A stretch of DNA of 64,000 bases from Woeseiaceae bacterium (GCA_021773055.1 JAJFKV010000044.1:20151-84150); one strand, 5' to 3'. Shown: positions 22,920 through 34,545, counted from the stretch's first letter. Numbers and translations are program-made. Notes: generated by a model not told the origin, from the sequence alone.

Positions 22920-25301
22920 TCAGCTCGCCTTCTTGGTTAGATTGACGAACTCGGCAGGGCTCATTCGCAATGCCGCGCCGGTAGGGCACGCTCGTACGCA
23001 GGCCGGCCCGCCAGAAAGGTCTTTGCACATGTCGCATTTGACGGCTTTCTTGATGGCCGTCTTGCTGGCATCGGGACTACCTATGGCCTGACGTTCACCG
23101 GGCGCGGCGCCTTTGCCCGTCAGCAGCCAGTTCAACAGGCTCGGTGCCGCTTCTTTTTCGCTCGCCATTTGGATAACGCCATACGGGCAGTTGCGCTCGC
23201 AATTACCACAACCGATGCAACTGTCTTCAATATAAACTTCGCCATTGGGGGCGCGACGGATGGCGTCGGGCGGGCAGTCCTTCATGCAATGCGGATCTTC
23301 GCAGTGACGACACGAGGTCGGTACGTGAACCTGTGCATAGGACGGCCCGGCAGCGCGGTCGAGTCGTGATGTGCCGCCGTGGGTCTCCGCACAGGCTTTC
23401 TCGCAATTGTCGCAACCGACACACAAGGACTCGTCAATCAGCAGCACATCAGTTGCTTCACCCAGACCTTGTTGCATCAGGAATGAAATCAGGTCACCCG
23501 CATCCGGAGCGGCCTCCATGCGCAGGTTCTCACTGATGCGCTCTTTCACTTTTGTCTGGATGCGTTCACGCAGCCCGGTGTTGCGCAGCAGCATGGTCTG
23601 AAAAACGTCGGCGCGCAGGAAGACCGACTCTGTTGCCACAGTCGCCGTGACGGTCGCCGATCGACGCGTTTCTCCAACCAGGCCCATCTCGCCGACGTAG
23701 TTGCCCGCTGCCACGTAAGTCGTGACGATGTCGCGGCCACCGATATGGCGCGACACTGAAACCGAACCATTGCGTATCAGGTGCAATCCGTCTGCCTCAT
23801 CACCTTCTTTGAAGAGAACGTCATTAGCTCGAAATGAAATAAGCTCTGCCGTTGCAGCGACGGCTTCGAGCTCGCCCAGGGGTGAGTCCGGTACGAGATC
23901 AGCCTGCAAAGTGCGCACGATAAAGTGCTGATCGATGACCTGCCGCACCGGTTCGTAGCTGTTCATCAGCTTGATCATTTCGCGGCGCGGTGTTTCCAGT
24001 AACACGCAGTCCGCTGATGCACGCACAGTCGCTGAACGCCTGCGACCCGACAGTAAACTCATTTCGCCGAAGAACTGACCCTGACCCAGGCCGATAAACT
24101 GGCCATCATCCGTTTCGACCTCCACTTCGCCTTCGACGATGGATATGAACGAGTTGGTGTAATCATTCTTGTGGAAAATAACGTCGGCGCGCTTCGGCGT
24201 GAGCAATTCACTCGCGAGAACAAGTTCACGCAACACGAGACCATTAACGTTTTCAAACAGCGATACGTTGCCGCGAATCAACGCCAGTGTGTCATCGACA
24301 CCCTTGCCATACGGCAAGTGCCGGAACTTATCTTCGAGTATGCCGTGATCGGCCGGCAAAATATCGTTGCCCTTAATGAACTCAACGACTTCGTAGCCCT
24401 GGTTCATCGCCTGTTTGATAAGGGGGTAGCCCCCCAGTGCACCGATGACATACAGACCGGGCACATTGGATTCATAATGACCTGAAAGCTCGGGCAAGGT
24501 TGTTGGCTCATCACTCGGAAAAGTAATGCCAGTGGATTCCACGAAGCGACGCGGTGGGATGGCACCAACACGAGCGATCACGCGGTCGCACTCAACACGA
24601 GTCTCACCGGTCTCAGTGTTCAGGTTGATGGCTTTCGAGACTTCGATCGATGCGACACCTGTGTTGAAAAAACAGCTGATCGAACCATCTTCAATGGCGC
24701 GGGTAATCAGCGTCAGGTTGCCTTCTTTCGCGCGCGCAAACTCATCCCGGCGATTAACGATGACAACGGCGTTATTGCGCGCCAGCGCCACAGCATTTTC
24801 GATAGCCGCATCGCCAGCACCAACGATGGCGATAGTTTCATTCTTGTATTCATCGGGGTCGTCCAGCGTGTATTGCACACTTGAGTCACTCTCCCCGTCG
24901 ACGCCCATCTTGCGTGGATTACCCTGCAACCCTATGGAAAGAACGATTGTTTCCGCCTGTAAGGTTTCACCGTCGGCAAGTTGCAGTTCGAATTCAGGTC
25001 TGGAGCCCGTAATGGCGGTTACTTCCGCGTTGTAACGAATATTGACCTCAAGATCGTCGAGTCCGGATTGCCAGCTGCTGAGAATCGCCTCGCGCGTGCC
25101 TGCCGCAAATCCAAGATCACTTCGCAGTGGCACGACAGACGGTTCGGCCATGACGTGCTTGCCTTTCTGGTAGCGCTGGATCGTATTGGCGGGCGCGGCG
25201 CTGCTTTCCAGCAGCAGGTATTTCAGCCCGAGCACTTGCGCGCGTGCAGCCGCACTTAATCCCGCCGGCCCCGCACCGACGATGACGAGCTCAAGACTCA
25301 C
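22920..25301 (-). CDS. Cytoplasmic FAD/NAD(P)-dependent oxidoreductase (thioredoxin-reductase-like) fused to two cyclic-nucleotide-binding domains and a 4x[4Fe-4S]-motif ferredoxin domain
   Basis: Dinucleotide folds LVIVGAGPAGLSAA and IAIVGAGDAAIENA. cNMP phosphate-binding cassettes FGEMSLLSGRRRSATVRA and VGEMGLVGETRRSATVTA. Cys clusters CVGCDNCEKAC, CRHCEDPHCMKDCP, CIGCGNCERNCP and CDMCKDLSGGPACVRACP. There is no signal peptide and the start is GTG. Confidence 0.85.
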   Translation of the reverse strand: MSLELVIVGAGPAGLSAAARAQVLGLKYLLLESSAAPANTIQRYQKGKHVMAEPSVVPLRSDLGFAAGTREAILSSWQSGLDDLEVNIRYNAEVTAITGSRPEFELQLADGETLQAETIVLSIGLQGNPRKMGVDGESDSSVQYTLDDPDEYKNETIAIVGAGDAAIENAVALARNNAVVIVNRRDEFARAKEGNLTLITRAIEDGSISCFFNTGVASIEVSKAINLNTETGETRVECDRVIARVGAIPPRRFVESTGITFPSDEPTTLPELSGHYESNVPGLYVIGALGGYPLIKQAMNQGYEVVEFIKGNDILPADHGILEDKFRHLPYGKGVDDTLALIRGNVSLFENVNGLVLRELVLASELLTPKRADVIFHKNDYTNSFISIVEGEVEVETDDGQFIGLGQGQFFGEMSLLSGRRRSATVRASADCVLLETPRREMIKLMNSYEPVRQVIDQHFIVRTLQADLVPDSPLGELEAVAATAELISFRANDVLFKEGDEADGLHLIRNGSVSVSRHIGGRDIVTTYVAAGNYVGEMGLVGETRRSATVTATVATESVFLRADVFQTMLLRNTGLRERIQTKVKERISENLRMEAAPDAGDLISFLMQQGLGEATDVLLIDESLCVGCDNCEKACAETHGGTSRLDRAAGPSYAQVHVPTSCRHCEDPHCMKDCPPDAIRRAPNGEVYIEDSCIGCGNCERNCPYGVIQMASEKEAAPSLLNWLLTGKGAAPGERQAIGSPDASKTAIKKAVKCDMCKDLSGGPACVRACPTGAALRMSPAEFVNLTKKAS

Positions 25302-26932
25302 GGATTGCCGAATGCGGCTGCGCCGGAAACTGTTGTTCCGCTTTGCGGGTCCTGCAGGCTGTAGGTCATACCAACGCCCGCAGGAATCGCAGGATCCGAA
25401 GTGTCGCCGGGCTCACTGAAGAAACCGGAGAAAGTACCACTGCCACCCGTGGCCCCACCCACCACGACCGCGTTGTAGAAGCCTTCGAACAAGTGGGCCG
25501 GCAAGCCGATCTCCATTCCCATATCGCCGTTGCCTGAAGCGCTCCACGTTACACCGCCGATATCGATGACCAGTGTGCTGCTCACAGCAAGGTTGGTGAA
25601 GTCGGCCAGGAACGTTGCGCTGCCGAGTACGCCAGTATTACCCCGGTTGTCTGTCGGTGATGTTGCACCGATTAGTGAGTAGGAGGCTGTGCCTGTGATC
25701 GGCATGACCGGTGGCGCCTCTGCCGCACTGCTAATCCAGTGCAGGCTTTGACTGCCGAGGTCTTGGCTGACGTCGCTGCCATCACTAAGCAGCGTGCCGC
25801 TGGCAACCCCACCCGACCAACGCCCCCAACGCAACACGGTCATGGTATCGAAGCCCGTATCGGTATTGGTTGAGGTGCCGATGTTCCATGCCGCTGGCTC
25901 GCTGGCTACTCTGCCGGGGTATGGGCCGATAAAGCCTTCGAGATTGTTGCCGCCATCAAGTTGCAGCGACGCAGGATCATTAACTTGCATACCGCTGAAG
26001 GCTGTTCCAATAGCACCGAGCGGACCGGTTGAGTAACTAATCGTACGACCGGCCGTTGCTCGCGGTGATTCACCCGGCGTGATGTCGATCGGCGTGCCGT
26101 CCGGATCGATACCGATCACGGGTTGTCGCGGCGTTTCCGGATTAGCGCTGTCCTTCGGATCGGTTTCCTGAGAGTCCGGAGCACCCGAAGCCGGGTTGCG
26201 ACGAAGACCAAGTTTGTCGTCAAAGCCAGCCCTTACCGGTGTGCCATTGGCATCGAAGCGCAAGTCGTTGTCATCGATCAATACGGAAGGCGGTGCGTCG
26301 AGCCTTTCGGGAACGCGCGACGCCATCGGAATGAAGGCGTATTCGCCAGCGCGAACCACTATCTCACCACCCGGGGCGCGAAATACTATTACTCCTGCTG
26401 TTACTCCGATGTATAAACCGTCTTCAATGGGCTCGCCCGGATTCACATTAGGCGCCCAGTCGCAGTCACCACTACAAAGTAATATCGCGAAATTGGTGCC
26501 GCGAATACCGAGCGTCCCAACTGGTGTGCGGACCTCGTAGTTCGCACGGTTTTCCTCTCCAATGGCACCCGTGATGGTGCGTAAGCCGCCCTTCACCAGC
26601 GAGATGACGCTCTTGTCCTGTGATGTTTCAACAATCGTTGGCGACGCAGCCGCGTAAACATATTCGTCGATGCGTATTTCACTGTTTGGCCGAACAGCGA
26701 TTTTCGCACCATCGATCATCAGCAGTTGCGCACGAGATGCATCACCGGTGCTAATCGTATCGGTAGCCAGGACACCGTCGCCTTTCGCCAGTGCGACCAC
26801 GGCGTCACGCTGTGCGGTGACAGAACCTTTGCTGAATAACACCGAGCCGGCATCGTCAGCGCTCGCCTCAGCAACGAAAAAAAGTGCAACTACAAGCGAT
26901 GCCTGTGTGCATACTTTGAAAGAATTAATCAT
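25298..26932 (-). CDS. Secreted FecR-domain protein with a C-terminal TbpB/Slam-cargo-like 8-stranded barrel domain
   Basis: Signal peptide MINSFKVCTQASLVVALFFVAEASA with no lipobox. FecR-like region KGSVTAQRDAVVALAKGDGVLATDTISTGDASRAQLLMIDGAKIAVRPNSEIRIDEY. The C-terminus (MPITGTASYSLIGAT...GSATFLADFTNLAVSSTLVI...GSGTFSGFFSEPG...VGMTYSL...VSGAAAFGN) follows the TbpB-handle/HpuA/hemophilin barrel pattern. ATG 26932 forms ATGA with the upstream stop; GTG 26944 is an alternative start. Confidence 0.65.
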   Translation of the reverse strand: MINSFKVCTQASLVVALFFVAEASADDAGSVLFSKGSVTAQRDAVVALAKGDGVLATDTISTGDASRAQLLMIDGAKIAVRPNSEIRIDEYVYAAASPTIVETSQDKSVISLVKGGLRTITGAIGEENRANYEVRTPVGTLGIRGTNFAILLCSGDCDWAPNVNPGEPIEDGLYIGVTAGVIVFRAPGGEIVVRAGEYAFIPMASRVPERLDAPPSVLIDDNDLRFDANGTPVRAGFDDKLGLRRNPASGAPDSQETDPKDSANPETPRQPVIGIDPDGTPIDITPGESPRATAGRTISYSTGPLGAIGTAFSGMQVNDPASLQLDGGNNLEGFIGPYPGRVASEPAAWNIGTSTNTDTGFDTMTVLRWGRWSGGVASGTLLSDGSDVSQDLGSQSLHWISSAAEAPPVMPITGTASYSLIGATSPTDNRGNTGVLGSATFLADFTNLAVSSTLVIDIGGVTWSASGNGDMGMEIGLPAHLFEGFYNAVVVGGATGGSGTFSGFFSEPGDTSDPAIPAGVGMTYSLQDPQSGTTVSGAAAFGNP

Positions 26933-28278
26933 TGCGGCACCCACTGTAGCTGGAGACCGACTTCCGTGCGGTCATAGTCATAAAGTGCAATATTTGAATC
27001 GTTGTCTATGTAGCGAATTCTCGGCGTTAATGACAAACCGTCAGACCAGACATCGCTGAAGGTTACCTGCAATAGTGTTGAGACTTGTGTGTCCTCTCGT
27101 GATGTTCCGAAAAAGACACCGTCGTAGTCACTGGTCAGGCTACCTGCTGAGGCGAATAACTGTCCTTTGTTGCCAACCGCCATGTGCAGCGTGAGACGCC
27201 CGCCAATTTTCGAATTACCGTACGGAGAGCCGCTGTTACGTTCAGAGTCGTTGCCACCGATCACCTCAAAGCCGAGCTTGCCGGGAGATTCGAATTGATA
27301 GGTCAGGCCGCCGCTGTAAAGAATACGATCAACATCGAGCGTATCGATCAGGTCATCGTGTCGAATGGCACCACCGCGAAGGCTGAGCGTGATATCCCAG
27401 TTAGAAGCGATTCGACTTCCAAGTAATGCATCCAGTCCGAGATAGCTCTGATTCGGGTCTCCATCGCGTGTGGCCCAGTAACCATCGGCACCGGCCCGCC
27501 CAAAAAATGGGCCGCGCTGCCAGGTCACCCCGGTATTGCCGCTCAGGACACCAGAATCGACGAAACTGGCGTCCGGGTTGTGCCGGTAGCTGGCGCGGCC
27601 ACCGGTATACCAGCCAAATTGCGTGCTTTTCGGGTTATTCCAGTTAAAGCTGGCGCCGGCCTCGACGAACGATGTTTCAGTCTGCAGATTGTCCGGGCTG
27701 AGGATGAAGCCCATGAACTGCTGGTCGTCGGTCGAGCCGTTGGCGTTGTCATCGTAACCACCGGCCACATCGAACGAAAAGCGGAGACTACTCTTGGGAG
27801 GTGATGGTGTTGCGTCGATGGATGCAATGTAATCACTAATAATCGTGCGTACAGGCGCTGATGGCCCCTCATCCAGCAAACGTATGAACAACGGACGTGC
27901 CAGTGCTGCATTGCCGCTGTCGAAGTATGCGCGGGCGAGTTCCATTCGGGCCCCTGAAAATTCAGGGGAAACGGCCAGCGACCGGCGCAGGCTGAATATC
28001 GCATCACTGTGGTGTCCGGAATCCAGCGCGGCAACACCGAGGAGGTAGTCGAAATACGGATTACCGGCCAGTTCTACTTCACGCGTACTCAACAGGGTAA
28101 ATGCCGCGCCACTTTGGCCTGTGGCCAGCAACGACTCCGCATCTTGAAGAAACTGCCGTTGTTCAGCGCTGGCAGCGATTCGAAATGTGTCCTGAGCGAT
28201 GACCTCGGTTGTGAATACACAAAACCACACGGTGAGCGCCAGGATAGATACTTTCTTGATATTCGGTACGGGTAGCAT
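26929..28278 (-). CDS. TPR + C-terminal beta-barrel outer-membrane protein, Slam/DUF560 (type 11 secretion)-like
   Basis: Signal peptide MLPVPNIKKVSILALTVWFCVFTTEVIAQ. TPR-like N-terminal ~170 aa (GNPYFDYLLGVAALDSGHHSDAIFSLRRSLAVSPEFSGARMELARAYFDSGN) followed by a ~280-aa barrel-like region ending ...DSNIALYDYDRTEVGLQLQWVPQ. The size and architecture match Slam proteins. Confidence 0.6.
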   Translation of the reverse strand: MLPVPNIKKVSILALTVWFCVFTTEVIAQDTFRIAASAEQRQFLQDAESLLATGQSGAAFTLLSTREVELAGNPYFDYLLGVAALDSGHHSDAIFSLRRSLAVSPEFSGARMELARAYFDSGNAALARPLFIRLLDEGPSAPVRTIISDYIASIDATPSPPKSSLRFSFDVAGGYDDNANGSTDDQQFMGFILSPDNLQTETSFVEAGASFNWNNPKSTQFGWYTGGRASYRHNPDASFVDSGVLSGNTGVTWQRGPFFGRAGADGYWATRDGDPNQSYLGLDALLGSRIASNWDITLSLRGGAIRHDDLIDTLDVDRILYSGGLTYQFESPGKLGFEVIGGNDSERNSGSPYGNSKIGGRLTLHMAVGNKGQLFASAGSLTSDYDGVFFGTSREDTQVSTLLQVTFSDVWSDGLSLTPRIRYIDNDSNIALYDYDRTEVGLQLQWVPQ

Positions 28279-28325: not shown

Positions 28326-30467
28326 TTACTTGCTCAGGTGGTCGAAAACCCCATCCCAATCCGCCGGCGGTGGCTCTTGTTTGAACCGCTCTATCCGATC
28401 AAGGTACGCATTATATAGAAGCTCGCCCTTCTGTTCTGTCAATTTTTCGAACAACTGGCGTGAGATTTCCCAATCACAGCGCCGATACCCTGCCAGCGCT
28501 TTTTCATAATCTGCCAGCGTCGAAAGTTCTTTTTCGTCGAGCGTCCTTGTCTCACCTATTGGTTCGAATATTGCGACCGGTTTCGTCTTTCCTTTAACGC
28601 GAACGAGATCTAGCTCTCTAAACGTAAATTCAGGGATATCTGCCACGGTGCCTTCATTGACGATGATGTCGACACCGTATTGTTTGGTGAGCCCCTCAAG
28701 CCGCGAACCAAGGTTCACCGTATCGCCCATAACCGTATAGGCAATACGAAACTCTGAACCCATGTTGCCGACATTCATGTCGCCACTTGCGATGCCAACG
28801 CCAACACGAATGGGTGGCCAGCCTTTTGCTGCGAATGCCTCATCCAGTGATTCGACAGCTTGCAACATGCCGAACGCGGCGAGCAGGGCGTGCCTTGCGT
28901 GGTTTTCGTCCTGCAGCGGGGCGCCCCAAAACGCCATTACACAATCACCCATATACTTATCGATGGTGCCGCGGTGTTCTTGTATGACGCGAGTAAACGG
29001 CGTTAGAAACTCGTTCATCATTTGCGTCAGCTCACGTGCATCCAGCCCTTCCGAGATCGTAGTAAACCCTCGAACGTCCGAGAACAGTACCGACATTACC
29101 CGTGTTTCGCCTTCCAGAGACACTTCGGCGCCGCTGGCGTCGATTTCTTCTACAACGCCGGGTGGAATGTACTGACCAAAGATTTGTGACAAGTGCCGTT
29201 TGTTTCTTTGCTCGACAAAAAAACCATACGTGATTTGCAGTAACCCGGCGACCAGCGTGAATCCAATGATCGATGCGATTGGAATGACGAGATTGAATGA
29301 TGTCCAAAGCCAAAGGTTAGTTGTCATCGTCAGCGCAAGTATCGCCGCGACCATCAATAGTGATGACTGCGGTGAAAGTTTTGGCAACAATAGCGCAACG
29401 AGTGCGCCGATCAGGAATAACAAAGTGAACTCAAGGCCATTCGACCAGGCAGGTTGCCGGCGGATAGTTCCGTCGAGCAAACCCGCGACGAGATTCGCGT
29501 GCACCTCGACACCTATGTACCGCTGACCAACAGGGGTCGAGCGCAAGTCGAGCAGACCGGCTGCGCTTGCCCCGACCAGTACGATCTTGTCAGCCAGCCA
29601 TTCACGGGGTGCCGTCTTGTTGACGATGTCGCGAGCTGGAATGAAGCGGAAGCTTTCCTGCGGGCCGCGGAAGGGAATGAAAACAGCGGCTTGTTCGTTG
29701 ACGGGTATTTCTTTATCACCGATGCGGAACGACTCAAGATCGATTCCGCGTCGTTCGCTGCCGGCAAATTTGAAGCCAACAGGTGGCGCACCCATAGCCG
29801 AATGCGTTAGCGCCAGCGCCAGCGCCGGATAAAGGTCACCCCGGTAGCGTTGCACTAGTGGCGTGCGCCGGAATACCCCGTCGGAGTCAATTAATGGCGA
29901 GTCGAAAAAACCGCCACCAGATGCATTTTCCTGCAGCGCTTGCAGGCTGCCGGCATAGCCGGCCGCTGTGACAAAGGGCACGGAGATATCGGTGAGATCT
30001 GCGGCAGGAATGAATGCTGTGGGTAGTACGCCTGTGAATTCAGGTTCGTTTTGGCTGAGTGAGTCTTTGAATACGAAGCCTGTGACAATATTGCGGGCGA
30101 TAAACGACTCCGCAAAGGTTTCATTGCCACCGCCACGACCTGCTTCGGCGAACAATACATCAAAGCCCAACACATTGACGCCATAGTCATCAAACAGAAT
30201 ATCGAGAATGCCGGCGAGCGTTTCCCGTTCCCAGGGCCATTGCCCCAATTGCACCTGGCTGGCCTCGTCGATATCGACGATGACAATGCGATCATCGATA
30301 CCGCCCGGCATCGTAGTACGAACGCGTACGTCGTAAAGGTAGTTCTCCATGCGGTCGATCGCCTCGAACCGCGGCTTGCCGGCAACGTGCATAGAAAAAA
30401 TGATGAGCACGACCGTACTTATCAGGAGGCGTATCAGCAGTCGGGCCGTGCGAGTGGCGAGAGGCAT
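28326..30467 (-). CDS. CHASE2 sensor domain - TM region - class III adenylate/guanylate cyclase
   Basis: N-terminal TM plus a periplasmic CHASE2-like region (IVIVDIDEASQVQLGQWPWERETLAGILD), three further TM helices, then the cyclase core VLFSDVRGFTTISE, KYMGDCVMAFWGAP and YTVMGDTVNLGSRLE. Confidence 0.88.
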   Translation of the reverse strand: MPLATRTARLLIRLLISTVVLIIFSMHVAGKPRFEAIDRMENYLYDVRVRTTMPGGIDDRIVIVDIDEASQVQLGQWPWERETLAGILDILFDDYGVNVLGFDVLFAEAGRGGGNETFAESFIARNIVTGFVFKDSLSQNEPEFTGVLPTAFIPAADLTDISVPFVTAAGYAGSLQALQENASGGGFFDSPLIDSDGVFRRTPLVQRYRGDLYPALALALTHSAMGAPPVGFKFAGSERRGIDLESFRIGDKEIPVNEQAAVFIPFRGPQESFRFIPARDIVNKTAPREWLADKIVLVGASAAGLLDLRSTPVGQRYIGVEVHANLVAGLLDGTIRRQPAWSNGLEFTLLFLIGALVALLLPKLSPQSSLLMVAAILALTMTTNLWLWTSFNLVIPIASIIGFTLVAGLLQITYGFFVEQRNKRHLSQIFGQYIPPGVVEEIDASGAEVSLEGETRVMSVLFSDVRGFTTISEGLDARELTQMMNEFLTPFTRVIQEHRGTIDKYMGDCVMAFWGAPLQDENHARHALLAAFGMLQAVESLDEAFAAKGWPPIRVGVGIASGDMNVGNMGSEFRIAYTVMGDTVNLGSRLEGLTKQYGVDIIVNEGTVADIPEFTFRELDLVRVKGKTKPVAIFEPIGETRTLDEKELSTLADYEKALAGYRRCDWEISRQLFEKLTEQKGELLYNAYLDRIERFKQEPPPADWDGVFDHLSK

Positions 30468-31374: not shown

Positions 31375-31398
31375 GCGTTGTGAGAAAAATACAACGTG
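31375..31398 (+). promoter_or_regulatory. Conserved inverted-repeat leader/operator motif upstream of TonB-dependent receptor 1
   Basis: gcgttgtgagaaaaatacaacgtg has arms CGTTGT-N9-ACAACG and ends 27 nt before the ATG. A 20/24-identical copy sits at the same relative position upstream of the second receptor. Confidence 0.5.
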
Positions 31399-31425
31399 TC
31401 ATTTTTCAATCAAGGGGATATTGCC

Positions 31426-34400
31426 ATGAACAGATACCAAGCAACACGCGGCATTCTGCGTTCAGCAATTATAGCGGGGACAATTTCAGCACTTTGTATG
31501 CCCGCTTTTGCGCAGGATACCGACGAGGACGAAGAGAGCCTCGAAGAGATCATCACTACTGGTACACGAATCCGTAATCAAAACGTGATTGCGGCGAGTC
31601 CGGTGACTTCAATAGGTATTGAAGAGATCGAAGCTAAGCAGACACCGAACATCGAGCGTATCTTCCGCGATTTGCCGATCACCATCCCAGGCGATGGTGA
31701 GAACGTAAATAACGGTACGTCTGGTCAGGCAACACTTGACCTTCGAGGTCTTGGACCCGAGCGTTCACTCATCATGATCGACGGCAAGCGTCTGGCTCCA
31801 TACGATATCAACGGTATCGTGACAACTGACGTTATTCCTATCAACATGCTTCAGCGCGTCGACGTTGTTACTGGTGGAGCTTCAGCGGTATATGGATCCG
31901 ATGCTATGTCCGGCGCGGTCAACTTTATACTCAAGCAAGGCTTTGAAGGCGTTGAACTTGACTTCGGTTATTCTGATACCGATTCAGGCAAAGCAATCTT
32001 AGGCGGCGGTGGTCACACCGAGTACATCGGTGCATTGTTCGGCGTTAACACAGGCGACGACCGAGGCAACATCACCCTCGGTGTGAGCAAAACCAGTCGC
32101 GGTAGCATCTTGCTTGCCGAGCGCCAATTCGGAGAGTTCGGTGTTTCGTCGGCTACTGGTTCAGGCCTGGGCTCAGCACCCGATACGCCTGCTGCAGGTT
32201 GTACCGGTGGCGAAGGCGCGTTCACCACGTCCTTTGCATCGGGTGTCGGTTCGACAACATCGATTCCGGGAACACTGGATCTTCGCAGCGGCAACTCCTA
32301 TCAGTTCCAGGATGACGGATCGCTGGGAACCACGCGATGTGCACGATTTAACTTCAACCCGTTCAACTATTATCAGACGCCTCAGGAGCGCTTTCAGGCA
32401 ACTACGGTCGCATCCTACGAAGCCAACGATAATATGGAGTTTTACGGTCGTGCAACATGGTCGTCCAACGAGTCAAACTTCCAGATCGCTCCGTCAGGAA
32501 CCTTCGGAACCGCATTCACGATTCCTGTTATGAATCCGTTCTTCGACACGGCTGCACGCACGACGATCATTGATGATCTGAATTTGGGTGCTGTTGCGTT
32601 TGTCGATGCGCAGAATCAGACGATCGCTGACTTGATGGCTCTGCCGAACCCAACTCAGGATGATCTGGATGCACTGACTGCAACTCAGGCAGCACTGGCG
32701 GCGGATCCGACTGGATTTAACTCAGTGGGTATTCAGGACTTCAATAGCGACGGAGTATTTGATGAGAATGACGCATTCACATCAACCGCTCGCCGTCGTA
32801 CGCTTGAGCTTGGACCGCGATCAGGTAGTTTCAAGACTGACTTTGCGCAGTATCTGGTTGGCCTTCGTGGCGAGCTTCCCGGTGCAATGGAAGGCTGGAA
32901 CTACGATGTCTCCTACCAGTTCGCGAAGTCTGACTTCATCGAAACCCGTGATGGCTTCACTAACGTCACCAATCTGGCTCTCGGTATTAACACCGTAAGC
33001 GCAACAGAATGTCGTGATTTGAATGGCAACGTCACTGCATCGCCGTGTTCGCCGATCAACGTCTTCGGACCGTTGGGATCGATCACCGAGCAGCAACGTG
33101 CAGATGGCTTCTTCATCGCCATTGCCAGCGACCTTCGCAGAACAACGCAGACGATTTGGGCCGCTTCTATCGACGGCACATTTGACGACGTTTCGCTGCC
33201 TTGGGCTGACGATGGTCTGTCTGTCGCGTTCGGTGCAGAGTTCGGTGAATTGACGGCAAGTTCGTCGCCGGATGAGTGCTTGAAACTGGCTCCGACCAGC
33301 TGTCAGGGTGGCGCTGGTGGTAACCGTCTGCCCGTCAATGGTAGCTACACGTCGGATGAGTATTTTGTAGAAGCAGTTCTGCCGTTGATTCAGGGCAAAA
33401 GCGGTGCTGAAAACGTCAGCCTCGAGTTAGGCTTCCGCGGATCAGACTTCGATCCGCAGGGCACAACCGAATCGTGGAAGTATGGACTCAGTTGGGAAGT
33501 GCTTGATGGCTTCCGACTTCGCGCTATGCAGCAACAGGCTGTTCGTGTCGCGAACATCGGCGAACTGTTCCGCCCGGTCACGACCGGACTGGACAATGCA
33601 ACTTCGGATCCATGCTCAATCGGCAATCCGAATCCGCCGGCCGCAGGTAGCACACTGTTCAATCTGTGTGTTCAGACCGGTCAGCTTCCGAGTCAGGTAG
33701 GTACGACCCAGGACATCATTTCGGGTCAGATCAATGTCTTTACGGGAACCAATCCGCTTGCCGCACCTACACCGGAAGAAGCGACAACACTGACGCTGGG
33801 CTTCGTTTGGGAACCAACATTCCTGGACAACTACCCAACGACGATCTCTGTTGACTACTACGATATCGATATCGAGAACTACATCGATACTCCGACGGGT
33901 CAGGAAGCACTTGATTTGTGTTACGTGCTTGAAGATCCAGTGGCTTGTGGCGGAATCGTTCGAATCGGTGGCGCGTTCACTGAAACAGGAACTGGCGTTC
34001 CGGCGTTCTTCACGAACTTCACGTCATTCCATGCTGAAGGTATTGACCTCGCAGTGAGCACGGCCGTTGATATTGGTGCCGCTGGCGATCTGTCTTTCGG
34101 ACTGGTCGCTCACAAGTACCTGACGAACGAGTTCCAGACGACAGCAGCATCCGCAGTTGTTGACTGTAACGGTTTCTACGGTACGTCTTGTGATCCGGTT
34201 CCTGAGTTCCGTTCAACATTGCGTGTTAACTGGGCTCGTAACGACTATGACGCATCATTGTTGTGGCGTCATATCGGCGAAATGGATGCACAGACCAACG
34301 AAGCAAGTCAGCTGTTCTCGGCGTTCCAAAGTGTTGATTCGTTCGACTACTTTGATTTGTCGTTCGGTTACACCTACAACGATTGGGCTCGCTTCTCACT

Positions 34401-34545
34401 TCTGTTGAGCAACGTCGCGGATGAAGATCCTCCGATTCTTGGTAACGAGACGGGTTCAACATCGTTCAACTCGGGTAATACATTCCCAAGCTTGTTCGAT
34501 ACCGTCGGCAGAATGTATGCTCTTAACGTGAAAATTAGCTTCTAA
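31426..34545 (+). CDS. TonB-dependent receptor
   Basis: Signal peptide ending CMPAFAQD. Plug motifs EEIITTGTRIR, DLRGLGPERSLIMIDGKR and VVTGGASAVYGSDAMSGAVNFILK. A long barrel ends ...YALNVKISF. Confidence 0.92.
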   Translation: MNRYQATRGILRSAIIAGTISALCMPAFAQDTDEDEESLEEIITTGTRIRNQNVIAASPVTSIGIEEIEAKQTPNIERIFRDLPITIPGDGENVNNGTSGQATLDLRGLGPERSLIMIDGKRLAPYDINGIVTTDVIPINMLQRVDVVTGGASAVYGSDAMSGAVNFILKQGFEGVELDFGYSDTDSGKAILGGGGHTEYIGALFGVNTGDDRGNITLGVSKTSRGSILLAERQFGEFGVSSATGSGLGSAPDTPAAGCTGGEGAFTTSFASGVGSTTSIPGTLDLRSGNSYQFQDDGSLGTTRCARFNFNPFNYYQTPQERFQATTVASYEANDNMEFYGRATWSSNESNFQIAPSGTFGTAFTIPVMNPFFDTAARTTIIDDLNLGAVAFVDAQNQTIADLMALPNPTQDDLDALTATQAALAADPTGFNSVGIQDFNSDGVFDENDAFTSTARRRTLELGPRSGSFKTDFAQYLVGLRGELPGAMEGWNYDVSYQFAKSDFIETRDGFTNVTNLALGINTVSATECRDLNGNVTASPCSPINVFGPLGSITEQQRADGFFIAIASDLRRTTQTIWAASIDGTFDDVSLPWADDGLSVAFGAEFGELTASSSPDECLKLAPTSCQGGAGGNRLPVNGSYTSDEYFVEAVLPLIQGKSGAENVSLELGFRGSDFDPQGTTESWKYGLSWEVLDGFRLRAMQQQAVRVANIGELFRPVTTGLDNATSDPCSIGNPNPPAAGSTLFNLCVQTGQLPSQVGTTQDIISGQINVFTGTNPLAAPTPEEATTLTLGFVWEPTFLDNYPTTISVDYYDIDIENYIDTPTGQEALDLCYVLEDPVACGGIVRIGGAFTETGTGVPAFFTNFTSFHAEGIDLAVSTAVDIGAAGDLSFGLVAHKYLTNEFQTTAASAVVDCNGFYGTSCDPVPEFRSTLRVNWARNDYDASLLWRHIGEMDAQTNEASQLFSAFQSVDSFDYFDLSFGYTYNDWARFSLLLSNVADEDPPILGNETGSTSFNSGNTFPSLFDTVGRMYALNVKISF

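Follow-up and report, generated by a model that had tools for sequence, protein, structure and literature searches.

The gene pair discussed in this article lies in a stretch of 64,000 nucleotides from a Woeseiaceae bacterium (GCA_021773055.1, JAJFKV010000044.1:20151-84150), the whole of which is called the window in what follows, positions being counted from its first letter. On the minus strand, from 30467 down to 16711, nine large open reading frames (ORFs) follow one another almost without gaps, and the second and third of them make up the pair, namely an outer-membrane protein (OMP) and what we shall call its partner. The first frame codes for a CHASE2-domain nucleotide cyclase, the stop of which is separated from the start of the OMP gene by 47 nucleotides, with a purine-rich stretch before that start. 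The TGA stop of the OMP gene (26929-26931) then overlaps the ATG of the partner gene (26930-26932) as ATGA, a coupling already pointed out in an earlier note on this DNA, the feature positions of which, all on the minus strand, proved to be right. The stop of the partner gene in turn overlaps the GTG start of the following gene, as GTGA. As developed below, the pair very probably associates an OMP of the DUF560 family, that of type 11 secretion, with a dedicated partner combining a FecR domain and a TbpB-like tail (Table 1).

Table 1. Features of the pair and of the two genes that flank it, as positions in the window.
Feature	Position	Strand	Basis
Divergent DUF560/SlipAM (type 11 secretion family) OMP, 449 residues	26929..28278	-	Pfam, hhalign, homologues, Atlas
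OMP, periplasmic TPR region, residues 38-155	27814..28167	-	AF2 helices 38-155; TPR_16 and TPR_19 matches; weak TPR_Slam
OMP, 14-strand beta-barrel, residues 164-446	26941..27789	-	AF2; barrel-only hhalign against canonical SlipAM
Partner, 544 residues: signal peptide, FecR head, linker, handle and 8-strand barrel tail	25298..26932	-	ATGA overlap, family search
Partner, Sec-type signal peptide, residues 1-25, cleavage after AEASA	26858..26932	-	Sequence; A-x-A / (D,E)-x-AG junction conserved
Partner, FecR-fold head, residues 28-205 (Pfam match 58-150)	26318..26851	-	Pfam FecR 9e-11; block conserved in A1
Partner, Pro/Asp-rich low-complexity linker, residues 206-295	26048..26317	-	Composition P 15%, D 14%
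Partner, handle or 'pedestal' beta domain with WGRW motif, residues 296-404	25721..26047	-	AF2: eight strands, pLDDT >90
Partner, C-terminal 8-strand barrel of TbpB_B_D type, residues 405-544, end ...AAAFGNP	25301..25720	-	AF2, Foldseek, hhalign, Atlas
CHASE2 sensor / class III nucleotide cyclase, 713 residues, operon gene 1	28326..30467	-	Pfam CHASE2 1.3e-51, Guanylate_cyc 1.8e-20
Flavoprotein with two cNMP-binding domains and 4Fe-4S clusters, GTGA-coupled	22920..25301	-	Pfam, overlap, same order in L001 and L082

Read from its ATG, the OMP counts 449 residues, as do its homologues, which align over 100% of the query, so that a longer frame initiated at TTG lacks support. The earlier note had given it 450 residues, with a signal peptide, a TPR region and a barrel: the architecture stands, the length does not. 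The N-terminus is hydrophobic, Pfam TPR models match residues 78-142, the chain ends ...LQLQWVPQ, and the AlphaFold2 (AF2) model (mean predicted local distance difference test, pLDDT, 84.7) displays helices at residues 38-155, followed by exactly 14 strands at 164-446. Among 51 homologues (54-92% identity), 28 match SlipAM (best E 7e-7), 42 match TPR_Slam, and none matches the PgaA or BcsC barrel families; SlipAM is present in all of the ten Atlas cluster types that are nearest to the OMP; and orthologous OMPs adjoining FecR-tail genes in other genera reach 23-39 bits (38.9, for example), above the Pfam cut-off. A canonical set was assembled for comparison from a class-level genome sample, comprising ten SlipAM ORFs (66-360 bits), several of which have true TbpB_B_D genes alongside. 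Aligned with this set by hhalign, the OMP family profile yields 99.7% (E 7e-27, 387 columns), and the barrel taken alone 97.5% (E 6e-12) from end to end, the reversed control remaining at 0.4%. It is because of these homologue matches, Atlas neighbours, AF2 topology, profile alignments and orthologues above the cut-off that we understand the OMP as a divergent member of DUF560, in line with the Slam-like identity put forward beforehand. The competing identity that had been named at the same time, BcsC or PgaA, came out negative: it is ruled out by a count of 14 strands and not 16 (the number of strands separates DUF560 from PgaA in the literature on type 11 secretion systems, T11SS; PMC8406197), by an NCBIfam BcsC match restricted to the TPR (16 bits) and by the end-to-end alignment of the barrel with SlipAM. 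A fold search with the OMP retrieved generic porins of 14 to 18 strands, OmpG, FadL and BcsC, with no solved Slam among the 50 best rows, and hence it confirms a barrel, not a family; a PDB sequence search with the OMP profile brought back TPR proteins only, and no solved Slam.

The partner starts with a signal peptide which ends in AEASA, just ahead of DDAG. Its sole cysteine, as read from the sequence, is residue 8, before the hydrophobic core, and the protein is therefore devoid of a lipobox; both the AEASA end and the missing lipobox cysteine had been correctly noticed. Lipobox-like strings occur in four of 119 close homologues, most of these being located within the h-region. The mature protein opens with a conserved (D/E)-x-AG and runs directly into the FecR domain, which Pfam recognizes at 42.5 bits for a cut-off of 24. 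The middle segment that comes after it had been described as rich in Gly, Pro and Thr; it is in fact dominated by Pro and Asp, the Gly/Ser/Thr richness of the protein being that of its C-terminal module. The length of this linker, taken over 70 family representatives, is at least 44 residues, with a median of 96.

The tail was modelled by AF2 as residues 291-544, starting from an alignment of 73 modules. The model (pLDDT 95.2; predicted template modelling score, pTM, 0.92) comprises eight handle strands, followed by eight barrel strands at the extreme C-terminus, and the C-terminal barrel with a TbpB-type handle that the earlier note had discerned is thus recovered, as it is by Foldseek, hhalign and the Atlas. 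When matched to the PDB by Foldseek, the tail finds TbpB, HpuA and fHbp with probabilities of 0.99-1.0, TbpB accounting for nine of the first 17 matches; its named Atlas neighbours (FecR clusters excluded) are all TbpB_B_D, FHBP_C, HpuA or HphA. Sequence comparison gives a fainter signal. A Pfam scan of the 73 modules found only marginal TbpB_B_D matches, in three of them; NCBIfam slam_lipo scores 17 bits on the partner for a cut-off of 80; neither the sequence of the tail nor its profile found anything in PDB sequence searches. The barrel half, aligned by hhalign with 13 genuine TbpB_B_D domains from canonical-Slam genomes, reaches 61% (score 32.9, P 8e-5), the register holding all the way between the P-x-x-G-x-A-x-Y at the start and the A-F-G at the end, and controls made of the reversed template and of 20 column shuffles give P values of 0.17-0.97. 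We conclude from these models and comparisons that the tail, built like a single lobe of TbpB, adopts the fold of T11SS cargo; common ancestry with TbpB_B_D is likely, not proven.

The tail module covers some 250 residues, and tandem copies of it exist in some close homologues. Searched against 1.84 billion representatives with an E cut-off of 0.001, residues 340-544 delineate a family of 503 clusters formed at 50% identity, 70 of which remain at E <= 1e-30; across this family a protein carries one to seven copies of the module, and FecR is found in 64 of the 70 sampled members, together with no other Pfam domain. Head, handle and barrel are conserved to a similar degree, and conservation by domain does not separate the possible topologies of the protein. 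A different arrangement is met at L089:4019-12872 (G213:C12), where a protein of 1201 residues carries two FecR domains and ends in an OmpA-like membrane barrel, and where a DUF560-like OMP gene and two more FecR-domain genes (592 and 560 residues) lie downstream. The membrane anchor of OmpA/OmpX type that this protein brought to mind for the C-terminal barrel of the partner was rejected, Foldseek giving about 0.1 for membrane barrels versus 1.0 for TbpB; the TbpB_B_D-like register, the ...AFG end and the Gly/Ser/Thr-rich barrel half also disfavour it.

The association of the two genes is not a peculiarity of the window, the genome of which holds one DUF560-like gene and one tail module. In a class sample of 400 genomes from 320 genera, the tail module is present in 26 genomes belonging to 22 genera, the window's own being counted. 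The OMP profile was then searched in the 25 other positive genomes. Of 30 tail loci, from 24 genomes in 21 further genera, 28 have an OMP gene upstream in the same orientation, and it is directly adjacent at 27 of the 28. As for the two loci that remain, one is cut by a contig end and the other is a weak match without an OMP nearby. The pairing is therefore strict, and far beyond what chance would produce. Distant metagenome relatives also keep the order of an OMP gene followed by a FecR-tail gene, the extreme case being that of L005:4537-17446, where the DUF560-like OMP is followed by a FecR protein of 3351 residues with seven tail modules. The module has no match in G238, which is 99% complete and is the only further genome sampled from the genus to which the window genome belongs, nor was it found in two genomes of the same order. 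This patchy spread, 22 genera out of 320, suggests gain by transfer.

The OMP side of the association extends further than the tail. Low-scoring SlipAM genes followed by a FecR gene exist in genomes that have no tail module (G164, G213, G368, G091, G252, G032, G391, G244 and G044), and G098, G269 and G322 have second SlipAM-FecR loci. In G032, G391 and G244, which belong to one genus, the partner is a protein of about 254 residues made of a signal peptide, a FecR domain and some 97 residues more; the G044 partner counts 268 residues, with a low-complexity tail. Partners of this size are too short to include a handle and barrel, and are therefore devoid of them. The shorter ones (L059, L060 and L062) also display a short cysteine-containing motif at their end, after a Pro-rich stretch. 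In a maximum-likelihood tree of 35 OMPs, a small sample with a midpoint root only, the ten canonical Slams form one group (support 98/94), and 20 OMPs, all of which have a FecR neighbour, form another (support 98/96), with the OMPs of short partners nested among those of tail-bearing ones; a FecR match was found in none of the five canonical-Slam genomes tested. The FecR-partnered channels are thus a distinct branch of DUF560, in which the pairing can outlast the tail: in related pairs the FecR head is constant, and it is the tail that is sometimes missing.

It is then worth asking what else travels with the pair. A CHASE2 gene lies at most 5 kb away at 13 of the 30 loci, in addition to the window itself. 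These genomes, of 2-6 Mb, have between one and eight CHASE2 genes, hence chance would account for well under one locus, a figure that is a rough estimate and not a formal test; CHASE2 genes are enriched around the pair, and the tie to CHASE2 drawn in the earlier note is borne out in this way. The order of cyclase, OMP and FecR genes recurs in L001, L007 and L082; it continues into the cNMP-binding flavoprotein gene in L001, at 60% identity, and in L082. The L082 partner has four modules, which means that the number of tails varies, from one to four, within an operon of otherwise the same type. The pair is probably an outer-membrane input arm for CHASE2-type signalling, with the 713-residue cyclase as the presumed receiver of the signal.

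A parallel situation in rhizobia helps to place the FecR head. In Sinorhizobium meliloti 1021, at pSymB 1567228-1572836 (L081:4310-9918), an ORF of 1219 residues overlaps the start of a CHASE2-cyclase gene by one base; it has a FecR domain at 85-179, TPR repeats at 397-606 and about 600 further residues, with a large beta region at the C-terminus. By its size, and by the domain range published for NsrA, the ORF fits NsrA, beside cyaK. NsrA is an outer-membrane protein needed for plant signals to reach CyaK and CyaD1/D2, CHASE2 cyclases of S. meliloti, according to PMC7529298 and PMC13001267, which cite Garnerone 2018; were the ORF indeed NsrA, then NsrA would have a FecR head, a feature that the papers examined do not mention. 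The locus was reached through its cyclase, tblastn of the FecR protein against plasmids giving no S. meliloti match, and when the OMP family is aligned to the ORF by hhalign only the TPR region is matched. Proteins of 1130-1260 residues built as FecR-TPR-barrel are also encoded at L085:3881-9785 (G145), L088:5628-11419 (G361) and L086:1977-5375 (G169), the first two directly beside CHASE2 cyclase genes, the third on a short contig without readable neighbours; fusion is thus a second means by which FecR is joined to an outer-membrane barrel in the vicinity of CHASE2. In such fusions, the L089 protein included, FecR must face the periplasm since it precedes periplasmic TPRs or a membrane barrel in the chain. 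Furthermore, genes for LysM-FecR proteins accompany those of CHASE2 kinases in Burkholderia and P. aeruginosa (PMC5192318). By analogy with these fusions and with the published cases, the FecR head of the partner would likewise reside on the periplasmic side.

We may now consider how the pair might operate. The OMP would engage the TbpB-like tail as a Slam does its cargo, and would place it at the cell surface as an antenna able to bind a ligand; the linker would pass through the OMP barrel, its length of 44 residues or more being compatible with threading of this kind without being decisive, and the FecR head would remain in the periplasm. There, the head would touch CHASE2, the periplasmic domain of the cyclase whose gene immediately precedes the pair, and binding of a ligand outside would alter the synthesis of cAMP or cGMP inside. 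The nucleotide would be read by the downstream flavoprotein, a likely reader of the cyclase product, which would in turn feed a multihaem electron conduit. That the channel displays the tail outside and that the head signals to CHASE2, taken as a whole chain, could well be the case, although we would stop just short of giving it an even chance. The split topology as such, tail outside and head inside, is put forward as a tentative proposal. More doubtful is the generalization in which a whole clade of type 11 secretion proteins would have given up export to serve as signal wires across the outer membrane, with lobes outside, a linker in the barrel and FecR inside switching CHASE2.

Several observations weigh against this construction. 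The Pfam SlipAM score of the OMP itself is 19.4 bits for a cut-off of 22, over profile positions 88-286 of 288. The partner has no Pfam match to TbpB_B_D, the Foldseek TM-scores of its tail are modest (0.37-0.48, those for TbpB being 0.40-0.48), and double-barrel proteins that are not cargo, BFA1 and kievitone hydratase, score like TbpB; the claim of the earlier note that Slam systems recognize exactly this barrel was accordingly overstated, the sequence similarity to TbpB_B_D being weak and reaching in hhalign the 61% and P 8e-5 quoted above. The C-terminal part of the L085 and L088-type fusions matches a TonB-receptor barrel model and not DUF560, so that the NsrA-type proteins, having barrels that belong to other families, are an analogy and not a fusion of the two genes under study. 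CHASE2 is adjacent at fewer than half of the loci sampled, and the pair of L005 adjoins a Ser/Thr kinase with a cNMP-binding domain, with no CHASE2 cyclase there. Finally, the known non-lipidated T11SS cargo, the hemophilins, are released whole, and for this reason a head that stays behind would be something new.

This last point leads naturally to plain type 11 secretion, in which the whole FecR-headed protein would be displayed or released, with its head acting outside, in binding or scavenging for instance. An OMP homologous to DUF560 and a tail resembling known cargo are in keeping with it, as are the release of non-lipidated Sec-type cargo by T11SS and the layout of published cargo, where a variable N-terminal 'effector' is followed by a pedestal and a C-terminal barrel, as in the partner (PMC12282271). 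Yet the constant partner of the OMP clade is the FecR head and not the barrel, which the partners of about 254 residues do not have; FecR domains fused to outer-membrane barrel proteins or to LysM stand on the periplasmic side (PMC5192318); and a head released from the cell would have no access to the CHASE2 domain in the periplasm, to which the pair is genetically linked. We consider plain secretion unlikely, and the same holds for the display or release of the FecR domain as the earlier note had pictured it, an idea that tail-less partners, NsrA-type fusions and the periplasmic LysM-FecR proteins with CHASE2 kinases argue against. Some of this evidence could be turned the other way, towards a FecR protein that is never translocated and stays wholly periplasmic, the DUF560-like OMP being itself a surface receptor or a signal channel, while the tail would dock on the OMP from inside, at its TPR domain or at the barrel mouth, or else bind a ligand that has entered. 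NsrA-type proteins, which unite FecR, TPR and an outer-membrane barrel, favour it, the barrel loops having been proposed as a sensing surface (PMC7529298). Tail-less partners that still keep their OMP favour it too, together with the classical position of FecR domains as periplasmic partners of outer-membrane proteins, as in FecA-FecR. What it explains less easily is the tail, cargo-defining and highly conserved, which has been retained and multiplied up to seven times, as would suit an exposed binding array. Moreover, we know of no DUF560 protein that acts as a receptor. We give this possibility little weight.

Another alternative is that the pair serves the electron transfer encoded downstream, for example by placing an HbpS-like lipoprotein or a decahaem cytochrome at the surface. 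The genes belong to one tightly coupled operon, conserved in L001 and L082. However, where neighbours were read (L005 and L084, for example) the pair occurs without recognizable cytochrome genes, the recurrent neighbour tested for across genera is CHASE2, and those other proteins have no TbpB-type barrel, in a genome that holds one such module. Such a role appears highly improbable.

Returning to a tail exposed outside and a head that signals to CHASE2 in the periplasm, we can compare the arrangement with known systems. The closest are the T11SS themselves (PF04575: Slam1/Slam2 with TbpB, LbpB, fHbp and HpuA, HrpB-HrpC and the Hpl hemophilins, TepS-Pls; PMC8406197, PMC12282271), where a homologous OMP has the same layout of signal peptide, TPR and 14 strands, and where the partner, encoded alongside, has a Sec signal, a variable N-terminus, a pedestal and a C-terminal eight-strand barrel. 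Signal peptide, pedestal and C-terminal eight-strand barrel are what defines cargo structurally in PMC12282271, and the partner has the three of them. It differs from that family in that its OMP falls in a clade of its own, with scores close to the Pfam cut-off or below it; in that its FecR head falls outside the approximately ten published cargo architectures; in its gene order, from OMP to partner, with some partners in the clade having no barrel; and in its recurring neighbour, a CHASE2 cyclase instead of TonB-dependent metal uptake genes. FecR, CHASE2 and cyclases are not mentioned in PMC8406197 or PMC12282271, and a FecR cargo, which the earlier note had suspected to be undescribed, is in that sense new to the T11SS literature examined. 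The cluster of genes was nevertheless already on record: in Campylobacterota, a CHASE2 adenylate cyclase, a FecR-domain 'outer membrane' protein, a TPR protein and a phosphodiesterase are encoded together, and the authors infer a single pathway (PMC9239204). This is the same trio of gene types, published as a gene neighbourhood only and compared here by that description, and in that work the TPR protein was not recognized as DUF560/Slam-like, nor the FecR protein as a carrier of TbpB modules.

Three signalling systems offer further points of comparison. NsrA is an outer-membrane-associated protein that relays an outside signal to CHASE2 cyclases, and, if the ORF has been properly identified, it brings FecR, TPR and a beta region beside a cyclase; it is, however, one FecR-TPR-barrel chain without a TbpB-like tail, whereas the present system has two genes and a DUF560 barrel. 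In FecA-FecR-FecI a periplasmic FecR-family domain is likewise coupled to an outer-membrane barrel protein and conveys an outside signal inwards, but the partner has neither the inner-membrane anchor nor the anti-sigma domain, its mature form starting with the FecR fold; no extracytoplasmic function (ECF) sigma gene is present among the neighbours read, no sigma-factor family having a match among the operon neighbours scanned (the wider window was not searched for one); the receptor encoded close by has a Plug only; and the output would here be a cyclic nucleotide. The system may thus work like NsrA or like FecA-FecR while being a member of neither. The LysM-FecR/CHASE2 histidine kinase systems (the Burkholderia BiofilmReg operon; P. 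aeruginosa PA4035/PA4036; PMC5192318) also associate a secreted FecR protein with a CHASE2 receptor, and differ by having no outer-membrane partner and no TbpB-like tail, a LysM hold on peptidoglycan and a two-component kinase output.

CHASE2 is among the commonest extracytoplasmic sensor domains of bacteria, and its signals are described as unknown (PMC5192318). The path from NsrA to CyaK in S. meliloti is the one CHASE2 pathway that has been studied, and it lacks a mechanism. A two-gene outer-membrane module tied genetically to CHASE2 receptors, the parts of which have a known behaviour, makes the input of CHASE2 directly testable, and a signal wire across the outer membrane, if it is real, would supply the route of CHASE2 input that has long been missing. 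A partner is also assigned in this way to a large, mostly environmental branch of DUF560; in the marine branch of T11SS, searches for cargo have found few cargo-like partners (PMC12282271), and it is possible that not all members of the family are simple exporters.

The remainder of the operon, between 16711 and 25301 on the minus strand, codes for the cNMP-binding flavoprotein with Fe-S clusters, a membrane protein of 289 residues, an FHA-multihaem cytochrome, an HbpS-like lipoprotein and a protein of 596 residues without a Pfam match, in an order that is kept in L001. This content suggests a multihaem electron-export operon switched by an outside cue via a cyclic nucleotide; were the proposed chain correct, an outside cue would gate an extracellular electron conduit controlled by cyclic nucleotides. 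A scan for promoters and terminators returned counts that are not above those of shuffled sequence. Divergently from the operon, on the plus strand, positions 31396-34545 code for a TonB-dependent receptor of 1049 residues, which has the Plug domain and no signalling extension of the FecA type; a receptor gene occupies the matching position in L001.

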